Source of the DNA: Escherichia phage vB_EcoM-Ro121c4YLVW
Sequence record: NC_052654.1
Length of the DNA: 64,000 nucleotides
Direction: 5' to 3' (one strand)
Shown here: positions 5,225 through 19,228 of the stretch, piece after piece
Numbering within the stretch: position 1 is the first letter of the stretch
Layout: each line of letters begins with the position of its first letter
The notes under the pieces: model-generated
Database searches by the model: none
What the model saw: the letters and a program-made list of their open reading frames with translations, nothing else
Told to the model about the DNA's origin: nothing
Program-made: the position numbers and the translations under genes

Positions 5225-5983
5225 ATGGGAAATAAAACCGCAGCTAAAACACAACGGCAGAAACTGGCTAATTCAGCAAAGATTGAAAGCCGTTATGCAG
5301 CAAAAGCGGTAGGTAATGACGATTACCGTTTAGATGAATTTATGCCTGAAGGGGACCAAAATAAGATTGTTCAAAGCATGATTTGGAATGATCTGACTGT
5401 TGTAAATGCTCCGGCAGGGACTGGTAAAACCTCTGTTGCTTTATGGAAAGCTTTGCAGATGCTTCGTTCAGGAGACTTCCGTAAACTACTTTTTATCAAG
5501 AACCCTACTGAAGTCGGAGATGACCAGATTGGTTTCTTGTCTGGGGATAAAACAGATAAACTAGCAGCACACTATGAATCTACAAAACGTATTTTCCAGC
5601 AATTCATGACAGCCAACAAATTGGAAAACGATATTGGATCAGGTAAGATCGAATTGAATATTCCTAACTATTTGTTGGGGGCTACCCTGGATAATACAAT
5701 CGTCATTATTGACGAAGCACAACTCATGTCAACAGAAACACTTAAACTTCTTATTGAACGTGCAGGTATTAATACGCATGTTATTGTATTAGGCGATGTT
5801 CGCCAGACATATGCAATTAAAAAACGTAGCAATGGTCTGCATCAAATTTTGGAACTTTTATATCCAGAAAATGAAGAAGGTGTTCGTGAGCCAATTGTAG
5901 ATTTTATTGGATACGTTGAACTGACAACGGACGATAATAAACGTGGACGTTTGTCTAAACTGATTACTGAAGTGTTTATTTAA
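5225..5983 (+). CDS. phoH: PhoH-like ATPase
   Basis: Walker A APAGTGKTS, Walker B IIDEAQ; start chosen at ATG after AAAGGAG (alternative 5174). Confidence 0.8.
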   Translation: MGNKTAAKTQRQKLANSAKIESRYAAKAVGNDDYRLDEFMPEGDQNKIVQSMIWNDLTVVNAPAGTGKTSVALWKALQMLRSGDFRKLLFIKNPTEVGDDQIGFLSGDKTDKLAAHYESTKRIFQQFMTANKLENDIGSGKIELNIPNYLLGATLDNTIVIIDEAQLMSTETLKLLIERAGINTHVIVLGDVRQTYAIKKRSNGLHQILELLYPENEEGVREPIVDFIGYVELTTDDNKRGRLSKLITEVFI

Positions 5984-6018
5984 TAATGTGGCAGGGAAGC
6001 CATTTATAAGGAGGATTG

Positions 6019-6519
6019 ATGGGTGTAGCAACAATAGCTATCGGAAGAAGCGGTATAGATGAGTGCTATCAAACGGGACTCGTAAAACCTAACGAATTTC
6101 GTCAAATTTGTGTAAACCATATTGAAAAAGAGATTGCTCTTACTTTAGAGAATATGACCCTCCGAGATAAACTGGAAATGTTTAAATGTTGGTGTCTAGG
6201 AGAAGATTGGCTTTTAAACCATTTTCAAGAACTTTCTGATAGTAAAGAAAGCTTGTTTGATTGTATAATAGGAATAGCTGGCTCCGATCCTAGCCTTCTG
6301 CACATAACAGAAGAAGAGGCGAAGTTACTGTTCTTAAGTAATTTGTTTAATAAGAAAGCACTGCTTGTTCGTGATTGTAGTGATCTTCTTAATAACCCGC
6401 TCGCAACGTCTGATCAAATTTTTGTTGACAAAGAGACACTACGTGCGATAGAATACATCTGCAAATATGTGAATGGCGGGAAAGCGGTTCTTAAAACATT
6501 AACAGAGGAGGAAGAATAG
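6019..6519 (+). CDS. hypothetical protein
   Basis: ORF track 167 aa; RBS AAGGAGG. Confidence 0.5.
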   Translation: MGVATIAIGRSGIDECYQTGLVKPNEFRQICVNHIEKEIALTLENMTLRDKLEMFKCWCLGEDWLLNHFQELSDSKESLFDCIIGIAGSDPSLLHITEEEAKLLFLSNLFNKKALLVRDCSDLLNNPLATSDQIFVDKETLRAIEYICKYVNGGKAVLKTLTEEEE

Positions 6520-7211
6520 TGACGACAATTATTGCAACCAAAAATAAGATTTTGAGTGACGGTAAGGTAACTTTTGGTGGACGTGTAGATTCTATTAATT
6601 TCAAAAAGGTCCGAAAAATTGGAGATTACCTTGTAGGTGGTGCTGGTCGTCTGACCTCCGTGCTTTCTTTCTTTCAATGGTTTGAACAAAATCTACAGTG
6701 CGAAGCAGCACGTGATGCTGTCCCTGGTTTGATGATTCACTCTGATCCAGATAAAGAAGATGAAGAGTTTATTGCACTTGTTGTTCATCCAGACGGACGT
6801 ATTTTCCTGCACGAAGGTAATAACCCAACACGTGCATATCCGATTGATGAAGAATATTATGCGGTAGGAAGCGGGTCAGACTTTGCTTTAGCTGCTCTTG
6901 ATGCAGGGGCAACACCAGAACAGGCTATGGAAGTAGCTAAAAAGCGAGATGCTTTTTCTGGTGGTGAAACATTTATTGAAGAACAAGACGAGATTATTGA
7001 ATTAACAGATGATGATTTAGAAAACTTCTCCAAAGAAGAATTGATCAATCTTTTGAAATTCGGTAATCCCTACGGTGAAGAAGAACCTCGTAACGTGGCA
7101 GGTAACGAGGCGGATACTGAAGAAAAATCTGTTGCAGAAAACAACTTGACTTCTAAATCTGAAAATATTAATCTCGTAAATGTGGCGGATTTCGAAGGAA
7201 CCGCTATTTAA
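6519..7211 (+). CDS. HslV-like (proteasome beta-like, Ntn-hydrolase) peptidase with acidic C-terminal extension
   Basis: N-terminal MTTI (Thr after Met), GGAG and AVGSGSDFALAAL motifs as in HslV; GTG start after GGAGG. Confidence 0.65.
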   Translation: MTTIIATKNKILSDGKVTFGGRVDSINFKKVRKIGDYLVGGAGRLTSVLSFFQWFEQNLQCEAARDAVPGLMIHSDPDKEDEEFIALVVHPDGRIFLHEGNNPTRAYPIDEEYYAVGSGSDFALAALDAGATPEQAMEVAKKRDAFSGGETFIEEQDEIIELTDDDLENFSKEELINLLKFGNPYGEEEPRNVAGNEADTEEKSVAENNLTSKSENINLVNVADFEGTAI

Positions 7212-11440: not shown

Positions 11441-11942
11441 ACGTAAACGTGGTGAACAAAGAACAAACTTGGCAGAAATCTTAGATTACAACATGGTTAA
11501 TGATGTGACAAAAGAAATTCTGCCTGTTGTAGAAGATATTCTTCAAAGAGGGTTACGATTCTGCTCGGATCGGGTGCATTTCATGTGGACACATAAAAGT
11601 GACTCCGCTTTGAATTTCTATCCTTTGGATTATACTCTGAACAATACAGAGATGAAAGATATCAACAAATACTTAATGGGATATAAAGATATAACCGAAA
11701 CCGTTCTTGGAGAATTGGCAGAAATCTTGGCTAACGATATCCTTAGAAATATTAATAAGGCTCTTGACAGAAGCCCAGCAGGAGTAGTAGTATCTTTTGC
11801 TGTGCCAGATATGGTTAAATATGAGTCTACAATACCTAATAAAGCTTATGCCTTTCTTCGGAGAGACGTTCGTGGAAATGTGTTGGAGATGGAGTCAAAC
11901 TACAAGATTGAGGAGGTTTTATGGCAGAGTTCGGATCAGTAA
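11430..11942 (+). CDS. hypothetical protein
   Basis: ORF track 170 aa. Confidence 0.4.
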   Translation: MIPKRKRGEQRTNLAEILDYNMVNDVTKEILPVVEDILQRGLRFCSDRVHFMWTHKSDSALNFYPLDYTLNNTEMKDINKYLMGYKDITETVLGELAEILANDILRNINKALDRSPAGVVVSFAVPDMVKYESTIPNKAYAFLRRDVRGNVLEMESNYKIEEVLWQSSDQ

Positions 11943-12211
11943 CAAGTTTTGAAAGTAACTTCGTTACCGCTTGGGAAGCTTGGGATGAAATGGGTGTTGG
12001 GGAACTTTATTTTTACAATGTAACACTACGTCCAGAGTATGCTTACCTGGTACCAGAAGGAACAGTTCAAATTGGCATGTATCTGTCTTCTCAAGACGGT
12101 GTTGTTCAATTTGAGTTTTATTCAAACACAACGGACAACGAATTTACATATCGTGCATTTCATGTCAACATGTCTTTAGGAGAGGAGAAATTTTATGACG
12201 ACCAAGTTTAA
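11921..12211 (+). CDS. hypothetical protein
   Basis: ORF track 96 aa; RBS GAGGAGG. Confidence 0.4.
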   Translation: MAEFGSVTSFESNFVTAWEAWDEMGVGELYFYNVTLRPEYAYLVPEGTVQIGMYLSSQDGVVQFEFYSNTTDNEFTYRAFHVNMSLGEEKFYDDQV

Positions 12212-12392
12212 AACAGTAGAAGAAGCCGTAAAAGCAGCTTATGAGGCTTTAGCGGAAGCAGAGCAGTTAGCAGATGAGACTGGTAAAGGTTTCCGTTTCT
12301 CCCCTGAATATGGGATGGGTGGCTATTATGATCCAGAAGATGAAAATGAGAATACTGGAACAAATTGGCATCCATCTTCTTTAAGTTGTTAA
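12195..12392 (+). CDS. small acidic protein, C-terminal W-x-SSxSC motif (family member 1)
   Basis: 65 aa ending NWHPSSLSC. Confidence 0.45.
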   Translation: MTTKFKTVEEAVKAAYEALAEAEQLADETGKGFRFSPEYGMGGYYDPEDENENTGTNWHPSSLSC

Positions 12393-12403
12393 TAGGAGGT
12401 AGA

Positions 12404-12679
12404 GTGGGAATCGAAGATATCAAAGGTTATAAGGCGCATACTGACGATAAGATTGGCAAGGTTAACGCTATTAAAGATGCAGAAGAGCGTTTAGGTTTAA
12501 TCTTCAAAGCTTTAGAGGAAGAGTATTGTGAAGCATATCATGGGTCTTTTGACGGCACAGAAAAAGAATTAGGTCTTGCATACGAACGTATTGATCAAAT
12601 CCGTTGTGCTATTAGACATTTAAAAGAAGCTAGTATGTGGGCTTGTCGTTCAGTTTTCCAACCAGAGGAGAAATACTAA
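12404..12679 (+). CDS. hypothetical protein
   Basis: GTG after TAGGAGGTAGA; 91 aa. Confidence 0.4.
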   Translation: MGIEDIKGYKAHTDDKIGKVNAIKDAEERLGLIFKALEEEYCEAYHGSFDGTEKELGLAYERIDQIRCAIRHLKEASMWACRSVFQPEEKY

Positions 12680-12897
12680 TGAGTGATCGTAATGTTGAAG
12701 AATTAACTGAAAAAGCCCAAGCTATTATGGCTTTAGTGGACGAACTTACAAAAGAAGCTGAAGATGCTGGTTTTGGTCTTAGTTTAGAAAATGACGCAAT
12801 CTGTTTTGAAGATTGGCAATCCTCTTCTTGTTATGGTGAAGGTGATGATGGTTTCGTCGTTAATTCTCAAGGTGTTTGGCACAGTAGTAGCTGTTAA
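12679..12897 (+). CDS. small acidic protein, C-terminal W-x-SSSC motif (family member 2)
   Basis: 72 aa; internal DWQSSSC and terminal VWHSSSC. Confidence 0.45.
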   Translation: MSDRNVEELTEKAQAIMALVDELTKEAEDAGFGLSLENDAICFEDWQSSSCYGEGDDGFVVNSQGVWHSSSC

Positions 12898-12906
12898 GGA
12901 GAGATT

Positions 12907-13179
12907 GTGGAGTCTGAAGGCGAACTGCTGATAAAAAAGAAAGTTAAAGAGATGGAACAAGCACAAAGAAAGTTTCGTAAGGAGATTGAAGAACTTTGTG
13001 AACAGTTTCAGGAACAAGCTTGGATAGGTGACTACGGTAACGGAGAAACTTATTACCCTACAGGAACGCCAGCCGCAGATCACTATATTGATTTCATTTG
13101 TGAAGATTATGGTGTAGAGTTGGATGAAAATGGTTTAACCACAAGAGGTGTTTGGATCTCTTCTTCCTCAATGTGTTAG
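12907..13179 (+). CDS. small acidic protein, C-terminal W-x-SSSSMC motif (family member 3)
   Basis: GTG start after TAAGGAGAG; 90 aa ending GVWISSSSMC. Confidence 0.45.
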   Translation: MESEGELLIKKKVKEMEQAQRKFRKEIEELCEQFQEQAWIGDYGNGETYYPTGTPAADHYIDFICEDYGVELDENGLTTRGVWISSSSMC

Positions 13180-13186
13180 TAAATAA

Positions 13187-13211
13187 TAACCCGCTTCGGC
13201 GGGTTTTTTAT
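13187..13211 (+). terminator. Rho-independent terminator
   Basis: aacccgcttcggcgggtt hairpin plus ttttatt. Confidence 0.7.
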
Positions 13212-13269
13212 TGACAGGAATCTGGAAGCTTGATAAACTTAACCTATCAACCAATAGAGGAGAAATATT

Positions 13270-14211
13270 ATGGTGTTAATTGGTAGCCGTGCATTGCAAA
13301 TTCATGCTATGGACATGGGAAAAGACTTGTATCGCCCTTGTGTAGATTTAGATTACCTGTGTACAGAACAAGAGTGGGAAGAATTATCAAAAATGTTCTC
13401 TCAAGAGGAGTTTGTTGAACTTGTAGAACGTAAAGGAAACAAAGGCCATGTCAAAATGATAGCTGGTGCACATTTGGAATACGATATTGCTTCTCAAGGA
13501 GATAGCACAGAAGCTTTGATTAGTTATTGTGAAGATTCTGATGATGTTCGTCGAACTTACGCTGGACATGTTGTTGCTCCTTTAGATGTGCTCTACCTTC
13601 TTAAAATGAGTCATCGTTTTAAAAAGGATAGTCCTCACTTCTTTAAAACTATGAAAGATATTCATTTCATGCGGTCACTGGGCGCAAAGATCCCAGAAAA
13701 TCTTAAGAGTATTTATGAGTTGCGTGAGAAAGAAACATACACTTACTCTCATCCGAACTTAAACGTAAAAAGTAAAGACTTTTTTAAAGGTGATGAGGTT
13801 CCGTATGTTTATGATCATGATTCTATCCATGAAGCAATCGCGGTAATGGATGCTCCGGCATATAAATCTTATATGAAAGATGGAAGTGAAGTTATGACCA
13901 GCAAAGAAAAGTTTTTTGCTCAACCAAAACATGTGCGCCTGTTAGGTGTTTATGAAGAAGCGTGTGTTTTGGCTTTGGAACGTTCACAAATTCCTTTCGG
14001 TGGAGAGATCGGAGGTCCAACCCCTAAGCAAAGTTTTATAATGGCTTTATCTAAAGTCTGCACATCCATCACTAGTGGTTGGTTTAGGGAATATGCTTGG
14101 GAAAACTTTTATGTTGTTATTAAGCTATATGAAAACATGGGCGAAAACGACTATGTTGAACGTTTTAAAGCTAATCAACATGTAGTAAAGCCTTTTGAAG
14201 GAGGTTATTAA
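13270..14211 (+). CDS. hypothetical protein, possibly Pol-beta-type nucleotidyltransferase fold
   Basis: N-terminal GSRAL...DLD resembles the GS...DxD NTase signature (weak); 313 aa. Confidence 0.45.
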   Translation: MVLIGSRALQIHAMDMGKDLYRPCVDLDYLCTEQEWEELSKMFSQEEFVELVERKGNKGHVKMIAGAHLEYDIASQGDSTEALISYCEDSDDVRRTYAGHVVAPLDVLYLLKMSHRFKKDSPHFFKTMKDIHFMRSLGAKIPENLKSIYELREKETYTYSHPNLNVKSKDFFKGDEVPYVYDHDSIHEAIAVMDAPAYKSYMKDGSEVMTSKEKFFAQPKHVRLLGVYEEACVLALERSQIPFGGEIGGPTPKQSFIMALSKVCTSITSGWFREYAWENFYVVIKLYENMGENDYVERFKANQHVVKPFEGGY

Positions 14212-14212
14212 T

Positions 14213-14608
14213 ATGTGTGGATATCTTTCAGAAAGTTATTTCAAAGTGACGCACGAGGATTTAGAAAAAGCACGATTGAAACTGACAGCTATTATTGAAT
14301 ACTCTAATACTGTTGATCACAGATTAAAGACTACTAAAGTATCTGTTCCTTGTTGGTTAGGTTTACGGCATAAAATAATGTCTCAACATGACCATGTTGT
14401 TCGAGAGATGCATGGTTGGTGTTGGTTTCACGATGTGGCTCTGCATTTTGGTTATATTACAGAAGAAGAGCATAGATTCTGTGAACTAACATATCGTATT
14501 CCAACCCTTCACGATTTAGATTTGTGGAAGAAAGCAAACGAGATTTTTCTTACAGAAAGTGATTGGCGTAAAGTTATGGCTTGTCTTGAATGGAGGGGTA
14601 ATGAGTAA
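14213..14608 (+). CDS. hypothetical protein
   Basis: ATG after AAGGAGG; 131 aa. Confidence 0.45.
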   Translation: MCGYLSESYFKVTHEDLEKARLKLTAIIEYSNTVDHRLKTTKVSVPCWLGLRHKIMSQHDHVVREMHGWCWFHDVALHFGYITEEEHRFCELTYRIPTLHDLDLWKKANEIFLTESDWRKVMACLEWRGNE

Positions 14609-15284
14609 AACAGTTTTGTCTATGTTTGACGGATCTGGGATCATGGTGTTACGTTATGCCGAAGCAGGTCACAAGTGTTTTTGTGTAAACGCTGATGAAG
14701 GGGATCACGGTAAATACGAGGTTAGGATGGAGCACCCAAACATAACCTATGTGAATGCCTGGATAGATTCTACATTCAACCCTGAAGATCATGGGATACC
14801 TAAACCCGATATTATTTTTGGATTTCCACCTTGCACTATGTTAGCAGGTAGTGGTAGCAAACACGAACGCAGCACAGAGGAATTGGATGAAGCTTTAGCT
14901 AATATTCGTGTAGTGGAAGCTTTGGGTAACAAATATAATGTTCCTTGGATGATTGAGAACCCAGTAGGTAAACTTTCAACCTTATGGCGTAAACCCGATT
15001 TTTACTTTGATCCTTATGAGTATGGTGGGTATTTGTTTGAAGAGGAAGGAAGCTTTCATCCTAAAATGCCTACCCGTGATGGGTATACAAAGAAAACTTG
15101 TATTTGGCACGGCAATGGTTTTGTTCAACCAGTGAAGAAACCAGTAGATCATATAGGCTGCTTCTGGGGTTGGAAAAGCTTAGGTGGAGCTAGTGCAAAA
15201 ACAAAACAACTTAGATCACTAACCGCACGTGGTTTTGCTCGTGCAGTGTTTTTGTCTAACAATCTTCTAGATAAGGAGAAATAA
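14601..15284 (+). CDS. C5-cytosine DNA methyltransferase-like
   Basis: Motif I LSMFDGSG, motif IV FGFPPC, motif VI ENP; start after GGAGGGG. Confidence 0.6.
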   Translation: MSKTVLSMFDGSGIMVLRYAEAGHKCFCVNADEGDHGKYEVRMEHPNITYVNAWIDSTFNPEDHGIPKPDIIFGFPPCTMLAGSGSKHERSTEELDEALANIRVVEALGNKYNVPWMIENPVGKLSTLWRKPDFYFDPYEYGGYLFEEEGSFHPKMPTRDGYTKKTCIWHGNGFVQPVKKPVDHIGCFWGWKSLGGASAKTKQLRSLTARGFARAVFLSNNLLDKEK

Positions 15285-15937
15285 TGTTAAATTCAAAACC
15301 AGTGGTTGCTTATCAAGTAGATCGTAATGATGGTGAAGGAAGTGTTGTTATTTTCAGTACACACGGTCTTGAGGCTCGTCGAAAAGGTGCATATCGTTTA
15401 GAATGTGAGTTTGAAGACTGCACAAGCCACCGTGTCAAACAATTCGATCAATATGCTGATAAAGGCTTCGTCCCTATCAAAGCGTTACTGGAAGATGGTT
15501 GGTGGGTATATTCTGCTTTTGATTACTCAAAACTGGAGGAGTCAGCTTCGTGCGCCTCCGAGATCGAATATGATGATTACTATGACACTCTATACCTTCC
15601 AGAATGGCTTGTCTTTTCTCCTGATGAGAGAAGTGTCTGGAAAACGTGGGAAGAAATGGAGAGACATGCGTATAGCATCAATGAAGCTTTAGATCGTAAA
15701 ACTTGGTTTATTGAGGCAGTAAAGGCGGCATACCCCCAATTCTCATTCTGTGATTTCACTGGCGGCCCAGGATACATTACACATACAGCCTCTTTTGAGT
15801 TTCCTGGTTCACGTTATAAGGGTAATGTTTATTGGGACTGGGATGAAAATAAACAACCTTCGGCTCAAGACTTCCGTTGCTATGTTTGTCAAGGCGATCA
15901 AGAAGCCCTTGACAAATACCTACAAAATCTGGTATAG
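15284..15937 (+). CDS. hypothetical protein
   Basis: ORF track 217 aa, coupled to MTase gene. Confidence 0.45.
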   Translation: MLNSKPVVAYQVDRNDGEGSVVIFSTHGLEARRKGAYRLECEFEDCTSHRVKQFDQYADKGFVPIKALLEDGWWVYSAFDYSKLEESASCASEIEYDDYYDTLYLPEWLVFSPDERSVWKTWEEMERHAYSINEALDRKTWFIEAVKAAYPQFSFCDFTGGPGYITHTASFEFPGSRYKGNVYWDWDENKQPSAQDFRCYVCQGDQEALDKYLQNLV

Positions 15938-15954
15938 TGCCAGCATCTGAACAA

Positions 15955-15984
15955 AGCCTCCTGTTTCAGGGGGCTTTTCTTTTA
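15955..15984 (+). terminator. Rho-independent terminator
   Basis: gcctcctgtttcagggggc hairpin plus ttttctttt. Confidence 0.55.
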
Positions 15985-15995
15985 TAGGAGGGAAT

Positions 15996-16481
15996 ATGTT
16001 TCAAGTAAATGTCAATGTGCATAATAGTTACTCTGATTGTGAAACGTGTGGCTATAATTCATCTAATGTTATTCGTATTAGTGGCGATTTAGGAGAAGCT
16101 TCTTTTGGAGAAGAAGCAAGTTGCTTTAGTGGTATGGATGCAGAATGGAATGATATTGCACATTGGTTAGTGAGCAAACTAAAAGAAAAAGAGAAACCAT
16201 TTCCTACTCTGCTTGATCGTTCTCTTGTGGAAGATGCAGGTAAAGCATATGCAGACTATGCGTATGCAGACGGGAAATATTTGGAAGATGATAAGGCTAA
16301 CCATTTGCTTTATGTTTACTATGAAGCTGAATCTGCCTACGATAATTATTACAGCATGTCTAACATCCTACGTCTGTTTGCAGAGTTTGATATTTATTTC
16401 GAAGTAGAATTTTCAGAAGATGATACTTACGAGTACAATTCTTATGATCCATTTGAGGAGGAAGAATGCCAAGACGAGTGA
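15996..16481 (+). CDS. highly acidic protein (possible DNA mimic)
   Basis: 161 aa, D/E/Y-rich C-terminal half; overlaps Sir2-like start by 16 nt. Confidence 0.45.
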   Translation: MFQVNVNVHNSYSDCETCGYNSSNVIRISGDLGEASFGEEASCFSGMDAEWNDIAHWLVSKLKEKEKPFPTLLDRSLVEDAGKAYADYAYADGKYLEDDKANHLLYVYYEAESAYDNYYSMSNILRLFAEFDIYFEVEFSEDDTYEYNSYDPFEEEECQDE

Positions 16482-17281
16482 TTTTTGTAAGCGGTGCAGG
16501 TTTAAGTGCAGACAGTGGGATTCGAACATTTAGAACAGACACAGATAGTGGTCGTGCTTTATGGGAAGAATATGATTTAGAAGAGGTCTGCGATATTGGA
16601 GCTTTCCAAGCAGGTTATCGTGTTAGAACATCTCCAGATCTTCCAGTGGTCGGTGGTGTAGACGAGAACGGTATGGATTTGTATGCCAAAACACACGAAT
16701 TTTATAACAAAAGACGTGTTGAGCTTAAAGATGTACAACCTAATGCTGCACATATTCAAATAGCAAAGTGGTTTAAGGAATATCCTAACCAAATAGTAAA
16801 CTTGACAACAAACGTTGATGATCTACTAGAGCGAGCAGGTGTAGACAGAGATTCTGTTATTCACGTACACGGATATCTTCCTGAAGTAGTTTACCGTATG
16901 CATCCCGGAGATTACAAAACACTGGTAGATATTGGTTACAATAGTATAAACATAGATGATTATAACTGGGTGAAGCCTAATGTTGTATTTTTTGGTGAGG
17001 CTGCACCTTTGTATGCAGATATGGCTCACTTGTTCGATACTTTGACCATGCAAGATTTGGTTGTAGTAGTAGGATGTTCAAACCAAGTTATCAATTTTAA
17101 TTGGGAATTATTTCCTGCACTTAGTATGGGTACAAAAATGGTTGTAGTTAACCCTGGAGTTAATTACGAAGAAACACTTCTCTATGAAGATCGTGGAGTT
17201 TTTGTTTACCGAGAAAAAGCTGCAACAGCCTTCAGCAATGAAGGTTTCATTAAAATGGTCGAAGACCACTTAAACAAATAA
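16466..17281 (+). CDS. Sir2-like (sirtuin-family) NAD-dependent protein
   Basis: GAGLSADSGIRTFR NAD-binding motif, HVHG and VVVGCS motifs. Confidence 0.65.
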   Translation: MPRRVIFVSGAGLSADSGIRTFRTDTDSGRALWEEYDLEEVCDIGAFQAGYRVRTSPDLPVVGGVDENGMDLYAKTHEFYNKRRVELKDVQPNAAHIQIAKWFKEYPNQIVNLTTNVDDLLERAGVDRDSVIHVHGYLPEVVYRMHPGDYKTLVDIGYNSINIDDYNWVKPNVVFFGEAAPLYADMAHLFDTLTMQDLVVVVGCSNQVINFNWELFPALSMGTKMVVVNPGVNYEETLLYEDRGVFVYREKAATAFSNEGFIKMVEDHLNK

Positions 17282-17288
17282 ACCACTC

Positions 17289-17312
17289 AAGGGGCTTCGG
17301 CCCCTTTCTTAT
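17289..17312 (+). terminator. Rho-independent terminator
   Basis: aaggggcttcggcccctt plus tcttatt. Confidence 0.6.
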
Positions 17313-17324
17313 TAGGAGAATAAA

Positions 17325-17597
17325 ATGACTGAAGAAATCCGTGATTACTACCTTGCACATTACGTTTACTACTTTGCCAATGCTACACAAAAAGGGGAAG
17401 GTAATCTTTACTTGGCAACAGGACATGGAACAGGCGTTAGGAAATCAAATATTGATAATGCCTTGGCTCAAGTGGCTGCGGGGCTAGAAGATAAACTTCA
17501 AACACCTGTAGTTGTAGTGATGCAAAATATAAATTACCTAGCAAGTTGTACTGAAACCGAATTTAACGCGTCTGAGACGCAATCTAACGAAGAATAA
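17325..17597 (+). CDS. hypothetical protein
   Basis: ORF track 90 aa; RBS AGGAGAA. Confidence 0.45.
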   Translation: MTEEIRDYYLAHYVYYFANATQKGEGNLYLATGHGTGVRKSNIDNALAQVAAGLEDKLQTPVVVVMQNINYLASCTETEFNASETQSNEE

Positions 17598-17598
17598 A

Positions 17599-17630
17599 AC
17601 AAAGGCACCCAAGTGGGTGCCTTTTCTATT
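17599..17630. terminator. bidirectional terminator at convergence of + and - blocks
   Basis: aaaggcacccaagtgggtgcctttt hairpin with A/T runs on both sides. Confidence 0.6.
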
Positions 17631-17666
17631 TTAGAGCGTCTCTGTTCGATTTAGGTGGGTTCTAGC

Positions 17667-17897
17667 TTACTTGTGTAGTGCTCTCTCGTATAACTCAATG
17701 ATCAATTCATCCTCTACTGTAATACGCGCCATTTGATCCGTCTTAAGTATTGTTGGTTGGTAGTGGTGCATTTCACTATTGATACTACAATCCCATTCGT
17801 CATAACCTAAATACTCTCCTACATGGACCTTAACCATAAAGGGAAACGGGTTATCTACCAAAAATGCCATACAACCTTCTTCGATTTTATTTAACAC
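17667..17897 (-). CDS. hypothetical protein
   Basis: ORF track 76 aa. Confidence 0.4.
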   Translation of the reverse strand: MLNKIEEGCMAFLVDNPFPFMVKVHVGEYLGYDEWDCSINSEMHHYQPTILKTDQMARITVEDELIIELYERALHK

Positions 17898-17923
17898 ACG
17901 ACCTCCTATTGCTACAGATATGA

Positions 17924-17945
17924 AAAAACCCGCCGAAGCGGGTTC
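17924..17945 (-). terminator. Rho-independent terminator (minus strand)
   Basis: cccgccgaagcggg hairpin; T-run on minus strand. Confidence 0.5.
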
Positions 17946-17988
17946 TATTGCTACGATAGGATCACTATCCTATAGTATTGTTTCTGTG

Positions 17989-18270
17989 TCAAGCCTTAGC
18001 GTAGAAAAACTTCTCATATTCAGATTTTGTTACGATTGTGGGGCAATCTTTTGTTCCATCCTCGATAACAGGGGCTTCTACCATTCTGGTGTTGAATAAG
18101 CAATAAGTTCCACGCATGTAAATACCCAGTTTTGTTTCTACGATGTGCTCTTTACTTACGCTTGAAAACTTAATCTCACCATCGGAGTCTCTTATAGCAA
18201 TAAGCGCATGTTCGGGCCAATCTTTTCCTTTTGCTCCTAAAGCATTATACAATTCTTGAACGAGTTCCAT
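17989..18270 (-). CDS. hypothetical protein
   Basis: ORF track 93 aa; RBS AAGGAGG. Confidence 0.45.
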   Translation of the reverse strand: MELVQELYNALGAKGKDWPEHALIAIRDSDGEIKFSSVSKEHIVETKLGIYMRGTYCLFNTRMVEAPVIEDGTKDCPTIVTKSEYEKFFYAKA

Positions 18271-18282
18271 ATGACCTCCTTA

Positions 18283-18456
18283 TTAAATAACAAATTTTTC
18301 TTCTTCTGGCTTATCGTAATCTGGAGAATAAACATGTGCGGGATTAAAACCTTTAAAATTTCCGCGACCTTTACGTGGACAGTTGAATGTGCGAGCTTGA
18401 TGATCCCCAAAAGATTTCCCACAATGCATACATTTAAAATCAGTGCGTTTAGTCAT
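18283..18456 (-). CDS. small Cys/His-rich (zinc-binding-like) protein
   Basis: Start moved to ATG after AAAGGAGA; CMHCGK...HQARTFNCPRKG. Confidence 0.4.
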   Translation of the reverse strand: MTKRTDFKCMHCGKSFGDHQARTFNCPRKGRGNFKGFNPAHVYSPDYDKPEEEKFVI

Positions 18457-18508
18457 GCCATATCTCCTTTTAAAAGGCTGCACCTATTGAAGATGCAGCT
18501 TTGATAGA

Positions 18509-18610
18509 TTATTTAGATGAGTCTAAAATGTCTTTTACTTTTGCCGTGATAACGTCTTGATATTTGTTAATAAGATAGCCTACAACTACACCTACGATAA
18601 ATGAAACCAT
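18509..18610 (-). CDS. 33-aa hydrophobic membrane peptide
   Basis: GGAGAAATA RBS then ATG; single TM-like segment; below ORF-track cutoff. Confidence 0.35.
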   Translation of the reverse strand: MVSFIVGVVVGYLINKYQDVITAKVKDILDSSK

Positions 18611-18619
18611 TATTTCTCC

Positions 18620-19228
18620 TTATTTAAGTGGTGAGAGAACAATCTCTCGGTTTTTTAAGAACCAAAGCACGTCATCTTGATCATAGTCTGATCCCTCTGT
18701 AGTAGAATTTTTGATAGAATCAAAAAACCAACGAGGTATACCAAAACAACTTCCAGATGACTGCATGTCTTTCTGCGACATTTTAAATGTGATTGGAAAA
18801 TCACAATTATCAATCTCTCGGATATCTGCTGAAGATAAGATTGTAACTTCAACCAGTTCGTCGTTAGATGTAGTATCGTTGTCTTCCTGAATAATGTCAA
18901 ATGCTTTTTGCACATCTTTTGCATCTAATGTTAAACCTGTGGCTTTCTGAAAAGCCGAAACAAAAATTAGAGCTTCTTCAGAGCAAGGGGCTTCCAGCAA
19001 ATGAGCCATAATAGGTGACAAGCAAATGTTAAGATCTTTGTCATACCAACGAACAATCCACACAGGCGTTGCTCCGTTTTGTTTGTCACGAGCCAAAATT
19101 GTAACGTGCTGACCTTCTTCTGGTATATGATACAAACCAGAAAAACCAGGACCTGTAGTAGATTTTTTGACACGCGCTACGTGTCCAACTTCTAAAGGAT
19201 CTTTACCATCCCAAATCTTCTCTTCCAT
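18620..19228 (-). CDS. hypothetical protein
   Basis: ORF track 202 aa; RBS GGAGG. Confidence 0.5.
   Translation of the reverse strand: MEEKIWDGKDPLEVGHVARVKKSTTGPGFSGLYHIPEEGQHVTILARDKQNGATPVWIVRWYDKDLNICLSPIMAHLLEAPCSEEALIFVSAFQKATGLTLDAKDVQKAFDIIQEDNDTTSNDELVEVTILSSADIREIDNCDFPITFKMSQKDMQSSGSCFGIPRWFFDSIKNSTTEGSDYDQDDVLWFLKNREIVLSPLK

Follow-up and report, generated by a model that had tools for sequence, protein, structure and literature searches.

A strongly acidic protein encoded upstream of a sirtuin gene in a phAPEC8-like phage: dedicated partner or independent decoy?

Introduction

Which role can be assigned to a small and strongly acidic phage protein whose gene runs into the start of a sirtuin gene? 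This question is raised by a locus of Escherichia phage vB_EcoM-Ro121c4YLVW (NC_052654.1), a phAPEC8-like E. coli myovirus (Phapecoctavirus, Stephanstirmvirinae), from which a stretch of 64,000 nucleotides (nt), here called the window, was analysed. Gene A (15996–16481, + strand) encodes an acidic protein of 161 amino acids (aa), a member of PHROG 9509, and is followed on the same strand by a Sir2-family gene (16466–17281), whose 271-aa CobB-like product belongs to the phage sirtuin clade lacking the zinc-binding cysteines. The surrounding region (window positions 13000–19000) is 99.8% identical to several phAPEC8-like genomes.

From the charge and the disorder of protein A we tentatively infer that it may be an autonomous polyanionic decoy, and that its adjacency to Sir2 reflects lineage-specific synteny and not an obligate partnership. 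With its acidic surface and its tail, A would cover a basic surface, probably one that binds nucleic acid, on a target protein from either the host or the phage, in the way in which DNA- or RNA-mimic proteins act as decoys, and a cysteine knuckle in A would serve as a structural metal site. A is thus placed as a probable new member among the small acidic decoy proteins already known from phages, and its fold is an unrecognised one.

Results and discussion

By sequence comparison, the open reading frame (ORF) at 15996–16481 is a genuine gene under constraint, because the PHROG 9509 profile matches protein A from end to end (E 2.5e-62, residues 1–160 on profile positions 1–157 of 158), tblastn recovers the protein from 130 phage records at identities ranging from 100% down to about 33%, and dN/dS against phiWec190 is about 0.13 and near the values of the neighbouring genes (dS is saturated, the DNA being ~73% identical throughout). 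Between genera A is 35–38% identical, whereas the gene upstream of it reaches 54–66% and Sir2 75%. This faster evolution of A than of its neighbours would fit either a protein at a conflict interface or a relaxed constraint on a sequence that is dominated by its charge.

Protein A has a calculated pI of 4.05 and a net charge of about −27, resulting from 37 Asp and Glu versus 10 Lys and Arg residues, and it contains 16 Tyr. Its pI is the lowest among the 107 window ORFs of at least 80 aa, and within the same set its net negative fraction (0.168) lies at the 99th percentile. Residues 81–161 hold 23 Asp and Glu, 4 Lys and Arg and 14 of the 16 Tyr, in agreement with the initial annotation of this locus, which had described a strongly acidic product with a C-terminal half rich in Asp, Glu and Tyr and had suggested that pI and charge distribution be calculated. 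Without the last 25 residues the net charge is −15, the tail contributing the other −12. All 27 full-length members of the family are strongly acidic (net charge −16 to −35), and their last 25 residues carry −7 to −16 and 2–7 aromatic residues, also where there is no overlap with Sir2.

An AlphaFold2 model of A, built from a 10-sequence alignment, reached a mean predicted local distance difference test (pLDDT) score of 86.6 and a predicted template modelling (pTM) score of 0.75. It consists of a long beta-hairpin (residues 2–15 and 19–30, with a CxxCG motif at the turn), a short third strand, four helices (51–64, 76–89, 99–118 and 121–129) and a final strand (133–141), while residues 146–161 (YNSYDPFEEEECQDE; codons at 16431–16478, + strand) have a pLDDT below 50 and form a C-terminal tail, acidic and rich in aromatics, that is predicted to be disordered. 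In this model A is a compact alpha/beta core, confidently predicted and without a known structural relative. Foldseek returned no significant match in the PDB (best E 0.11, TM 0.21) and, among the viral models of BFVD, retrieved uncharacterised family members only (from phage ukendt, an Erwinia jumbo phage and RaK2). A PDB sequence search with the A-family profile gave chance matches only (E >0.2), a Pfam scan at E up to 1 returned zn-ribbon_14 at E 0.17 only, and the NCBIfam and PADLOC searches contained no meaningful match for A beyond weak zinc-ribbon-like ones. The annotation as 'putative aminoacyl-tRNA synthetase', which the A homologues of EmilieFrey and BME3 carry, was supported by none of the profile or fold searches made here.

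These results bear on the analogy to the DNA mimics Ocr and ArdA that had been drawn in the initial annotation. As an anti-restriction protein of this type, A would block Type I restriction-modification, perhaps BREX. Ocr (T7 gp0.3) and ArdA are, like A, small and very acidic proteins (pI about 4) of phages or mobile elements, and the charge density of A, with its net −27 over 161 aa, may be similar to theirs. Expression of A is probably early, from a sigma70-like promoter described below, and its faster evolution is compatible with an arms race. However, Ocr and ArdA form a rigid, elongated helical dimer shaped like DNA, whereas A combines an alpha/beta domain and a Cys knuckle with a disordered tail, and about half of its charge is located in this tail instead of on a rigid DNA-shaped surface. 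The Pfam scan revealed no match to the Ocr or ArdA families, and the fold searches no similarity to solved DNA mimics or to viral models outside the A family, so that the charge is the only property shared. Moreover, a Dcm-like and other DNA methyltransferases are encoded nearby and represent another route of restriction evasion. An Ocr/ArdA-type function of A is therefore, in our view, very unlikely.

The A family is, on the evidence of profile searches, small and restricted to phages, comprising PHROG 9509 and remote relatives in jumbo phages. In a search that covered 1.84 billion representative proteins the family profile matched 22 clusters, and a 900-aa cluster, a repetitive bacterial surface protein that matches the hairpin segment only, was treated as spurious. 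All clusters with examined genomic context are of phage origin. The remaining groups are Stephanstirmvirinae (phAPEC8-like and phi92-like), enterobacterial jumbo phages (Eneladusvirus/Serratia BF, Asteriusvirus/G17/121Q, RaK2 and GAP32) and a few metagenomic contigs. Across the family alignment only C15, C18, G38 and C43 are invariant, corresponding to a C-[ED]-x-C-G knuckle and one more Cys. According to alignment and model, the knuckle (C15-E-T-C18-G19, codons at 16038–16052, + strand) lies at the tip of the N-terminal beta-hairpin, and the third invariant Cys, C43, is encoded at 16122–16124 (+ strand). Zinc-ribbon matches at the knuckle are weak (zn-ribbon_14 E 0.17, bL32 E 0.064) and no fourth ligand was identified; the knuckle and the third Cys probably form a structural metal site.

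Since these are the only invariant cysteines of the family, A might also be a metal-handling protein, binding Zn, Fe or an Fe–S cluster through these cysteines and its acidic surface, with a functional link to a Dps-like mini-ferritin. Outside the Stephanstirmvirinae the recurring neighbours of the A family are a DUF5856 gene and, often a few genes downstream, a gene for thymidine kinase, and in jumbo phages and related contigs the A gene is located immediately downstream or within about 1 kb of the DUF5856 gene. The DUF5856 proteins (146–149 aa; beside or near the A-family gene in our loci L009, 2013–3028; L012–L015, about 5515–6660; L019, 634–1588; L026, 57–1954; and L024, 403–1981) show a Dps-like HW..H..D..E pattern and are 61–87% conserved, far above the acidic protein, and one record annotates a starvation-inducible DNA-binding protein. 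However, tblastn found no DUF5856 homologue within the 64-kb window, three Cys with a rubredoxin-like knuckle are most simply explained as a structural zinc site, and the fold searches linked A neither to frataxin nor to ferredoxin or any other metallochaperone. The DUF5856 link may be synteny among related jumbo phages, and we give little credence to a role of A in metal handling.

The arrangement of the locus supports the view that A and Sir2 are co-expressed as an early-type unit in the order promoter, hairpin, A, Sir2, terminator. A near-consensus sigma70-type promoter-like site is located at 15909–15938 (+ strand; TTGACA, 18 nt, TATAGT and an extended −10 TG, with 11/12 positions in the pattern match). 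Its counterparts in phi92 (12/12) and phiWec190 (11/12) are placed correspondingly, although the DNA of these phages is only about 70% identical. Within about 15 nt of this site and ahead of the gene A start, a GC-rich hairpin followed by a T-run forms a terminator-like pattern (15953–15977, + strand), and the hairpin keeps its position, and its order after the promoter, in phi92 and phiWec190. This hairpin may terminate upstream transcription and/or act as a stem-loop in the 5' untranslated region of the A–Sir2 mRNA, where it could be an attenuator or a stabiliser. Downstream of Sir2, a terminator-like hairpin (AAGGGGCTTCGGCCCCTT) is again followed by a T-run (17289–17306, + strand) and is kept in the same two phages. 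We regard the promoter-like site and the hairpins as real elements at the level of pattern recognition.

Translation of both genes is probably coupled. Gene A is preceded by the Shine-Dalgarno (SD) sequence AGGAGGG (15986–15992, + strand), as read from the sequence, and the SD sequence of Sir2, GAGGAGG (16455–16461, + strand), is written together with the Sir2 ATG at 16466 in the Glu-Glu-Glu-Glu-Cys codons of the A tail. The stop codon of A at 16479–16481 completes an overlap of 16 nt. Since the ribosome-binding site (RBS) and the start of Sir2 lie within the last codons of A, both proteins would be made together. Five loci retain the junction GAGGAGGAAGA-ATG-CCAAGACGA, with A proteins that elsewhere share 35–65% identity, and the overlap among loci amounts to 16 nt (five loci), 13 nt (one) or 1 nt (one). 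Because the RBS of Sir2 resides in the Glu codons of the tail, the conserved final EEEECQD is explained at least partly by a dual-coding constraint and is no evidence on the function of A. Of the 10 + strand junctions in the vicinity (11921–17597), 6 overlap as well, and the overlap of A and Sir2 is thus not distinctive. It had been concluded in the initial annotation that this overlap implies coupled expression; the embedded SD and ATG and the bracketing promoter and terminator are in line with coupling, but the overlap as such is a common feature of this region.

Natural variants of this locus exist. The segment from 16464 to 17329, which is composed of the Sir2 ORF and the terminator, reaches 91% DNA identity to phi92, whereas identity in the flanks does not exceed 75% or the flanks fail to align; at the protein level Sir2 is 96% and A 37% identical between the two phages. 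With this identity confined to Sir2 and its terminator, it looks like the Sir2 cassette was exchanged between genera without A, seemingly recently, one breakpoint lying at the start of Sir2 and the other directly beyond the terminator, and now stands beside a very different A. On at least two occasions a free-standing HNH endonuclease gene has entered exactly at the junction, namely in Klebsiella phage FKP3 (locus L003, 3480–4130) and in E. coli phage nepoznato (locus L022, 2477–3217), with loss of the overlap in both cases. The HNH ORF of FKP3 begins with the former RBS, the ATG and the first three codons (MPR) of Sir2, and Sir2 of both phages possesses a new AAGGAGG RBS. The A/Sir2 junction appears to be a homing hot spot. 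The overlap is also lost in EmilieFrey-type phages, in which a single-base change from GAA to TAA (TAC GAA to TAC TAA; EmilieFrey (Bas61), locus L002, 3460–3480) removes the last eight residues of A and leaves a gap of 11 nt before Sir2. The tblastn matches in ESCO32, PD06, inny and BME3 end at A residues 150–151, which suggests that these phages carry the same truncation.

The assignment of the downstream gene as Sir2-like, already made in the initial annotation, is firmly confirmed by Pfam SIR2 (80.5 bits at a cut-off of 24) and by PHROG 2162 (E 2.8e-104). The closest relatives of the protein are the CobB-type deacylases (E. coli CobB, 1S5P, E 7.6e-19). The NAD-binding GAGxS...FR motif, the TxNVD motif and the HG motif with the catalytic His are present, and the motifs GAGLSADSGIRTFR, TTNVDD and VIHVHG align to those of CobB and are kept among the phage homologues. 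Sir2 scores far below the NCBIfam equivalog cut-offs, and PADLOC gave no meaningful match to defence sirtuins (best E 0.017). The segment of Sir2 that aligns to the four-Cys zinc module of CobB (Sir2 residues 136–178) contains no cysteine. All other phage-clade sirtuins examined (T5-like, rV5-like, Vibrio and jumbo) also lack these cysteines regardless of the presence of A, ruling out that A supplies the zinc module of Sir2 in trans. Alignments further revealed an insertion of 21–22 residues at Sir2 residues 50–71 (GYRVRTSPDLPVVGGVDENGMD; 16613–16678, + strand), which is confined to Stephanstirmvirinae; the sirtuins of T5-like, rV5-like and Vibrio phages, of KP12 and of G17 lack it. In this phage Sir2 has no RNA-repair genes at its sides; the + strand cluster around it includes genes for nucleotide metabolism, the DNA methyltransferases mentioned above, PhoH and similar functions.

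Several observations weigh against A as an autonomous decoy. Many proteins of this phage are acidic, the median pI of the window ORFs being 5.3, and no structural match indicates the binding target of A, the decoy role being deduced from charge and disorder only. In 12 of 12 Stephanstirmvirinae loci A is positioned directly upstream of Sir2 or is split from it only by a mobile HNH gene. The Sir2 insertion described above co-occurs with this adjacency and would fit a lineage-specific interaction of A and Sir2. The jumbo phage G17 carries a sirtuin elsewhere in its genome, and Serratia phage BF has been reported to encode a sirtuin (PMC9503650). Both phages hold an A-family member as well, and co-occurrence at the genome level is therefore not refuted.

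A could alternatively be a dedicated partner of Sir2 that inhibits it or regulates it like an antitoxin, adapts its specificity or serves as its substrate, with translational coupling setting the stoichiometry, and within the cleft of the sirtuin the acidic tail could mimic a substrate, either nucleic acid or peptide. In favour of a partnership, adjacency and orientation are maintained in these loci although the identity of A drops to about 35%, a conserved promoter-like site and terminator bracket the pair, the translation start of Sir2 is embedded in A, and the 21-aa Sir2 insertion is found only where A is adjacent. In addition, an acidic tail might mimic RNA ends, which are the predicted site of action of the phage-clade sirtuins (PMC9503650). 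However, none of 12 A-family loci outside the Stephanstirmvirinae (jumbo phages and metagenomic contigs, with visible flanks of 0.3–6 kb) has a Sir2 gene beside it, and in G17 the A homologue at about 252.5 kb is separated by 31 kb from the Sir2 gene, which is located at about 283.5 kb beside a Nudix gene. The related sirtuins of T5-like and rV5-like phages, 47–60% identical to the Sir2 studied here, have different neighbours and work without an A-like protein, and no A-like neighbour was found for the KP12 and Vibrio phage sirtuins, next to which other genes are located. Near-identical Sir2 proteins stand beside A proteins that are only 37% identical, HNH insertions and a nonsense change that truncates the tail are tolerated, genes overlap as a rule in this genome, and synteny in one subfamily is weak functional evidence. 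Taken together, this suggests that a single subfamily has conserved the adjacency of A and Sir2 and that the genes behave as separable modules. Of the role as partner, regulator or substrate of Sir2 which the initial annotation had considered, the co-expression unit stands, but the confinement of the adjacency to one subfamily and the separability of the genes weaken it, and we regard a dedicated partnership as possible, though unlikely.

A more specific model combines the charge of A with the insertion in Sir2: as a regulator mimicking nucleic acid, A could dock on the Stephanstirmvirinae insertion of the zinc-less sirtuin and gate the NAD-dependent activity of this enzyme on RNA or DNA ends. 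If true, this would be an undescribed pair of a sirtuin and an acidic inhibitor, of a toxin-antitoxin or safety-catch type, for host takeover. We consider this docking model decidedly improbable.

A can also be compared with single-stranded-DNA-binding proteins that carry acidic tails. In SSB of E. coli, T7 gp2.5 and T4 gp32, as in A, the C-terminal tail is disordered, contains many Asp and Glu residues and has aromatics near its end, and T4 gp32 combines a Cys-containing zinc site with its acidic tail. Unlike these proteins, A has no OB fold and shows no detectable homology to them. Since A is acidic throughout, with a net charge of about −15 in its core, it is unlikely to be a nucleic-acid binder itself.

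For phage sirtuins, a function in RNA-end repair was predicted for this viral clade from three types of gene neighbourhood, namely 2H/Nudix/cREC/PIN, RNA ligase/cREC/kinase/MazG, and HAD phosphatase (Iyer et al. 2022, PMC9503650). The pair of A and Sir2 is absent from these three types. The Sir2 of this phage is 52–58% identical to the sirtuin of SP15 (T5-like) and 47–54% identical to that of HdK5, a member of the Vequintavirus group, which is typified by phage V5 in PMC9503650, and the loss of the zinc cysteines is common to them. It was ruled out that A is a cREC domain, which is linked to Sir2 in rV5-like phages, as the topology of A (beta-beta-beta/four helices/beta) is not Rossmannoid. 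No sequence similarity of A was found to the proteins encoded upstream of Sir2 in HdK5 or KP12. The Sirtuin-Macro systems, which are toxin-antitoxin-like, and the defence sirtuins ThsA, DSR and SIR2-HerA resemble the locus in that a sirtuin gene and a small partner gene are closely joined as a two-gene unit. In contrast to the former, A has no Macro domain, in keeping with the Pfam scan, and in contrast to the latter, Sir2 is nearest to the CobB type and has no meaningful counterpart in PADLOC.

Some further features were observed around the locus. Immediately upstream of A, the window encodes a 217-aa acidic protein rich in Trp, Tyr and Cys (15284–15937; PHROG 8514, no Pfam match), which holds this position in 10 of 10 Stephanstirmvirinae loci searched and is 49–68% identical among them. 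Farther upstream, three small tandem ORFs of 65–90 aa (12195–12392, 12637–12897 and 12907–13179) resemble paralogues; each has an N-terminal helical acidic segment, and they share C-terminal endings of the type Trp-x-Ser-Ser-Ser...Cys (NWHPSSLSC, GVWHSSSC and GVWISSSSMC). Where the + and − strand gene clusters meet, a hairpin with a perfect 10-bp stem and a T-run on each strand (17601–17624) is probably a bidirectional terminator. Finally, five records of 146–151 kb (MG065645.1, MG065639.1, MG065656.1, OP562383.1 and OR584014.1) contain the locus at identities typical of E. coli Stephanstirmvirinae, and they are labelled as Campylobacter, Acinetobacter or Pseudomonas phages; these host labels may be wrong or may result from contamination.

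Conclusions

The A family already has a catalogue entry, PHROG 9509, with no function assigned to it. In the literature searched there was no paper on the A family or on DUF5856 and no experimental work on phage sirtuins, and the sole functional proposal found for the latter, RNA-end repair, is computational and does not cover this neighbourhood (PMC9503650). As a small and apparently early-expressed protein, the predicted fold of which has no solved relative, A would be a candidate new factor of the decoy or anti-defence type. E. coli phages carry it, the BASEL phage EmilieFrey (Bas61) among them, and so do large jumbo phages. The tail-truncated, HNH-interrupted and Sir2-swapped forms that occur naturally would serve as ready controls, and the apparent separability of A from Sir2 means that both genes should be tested independently as well as together.

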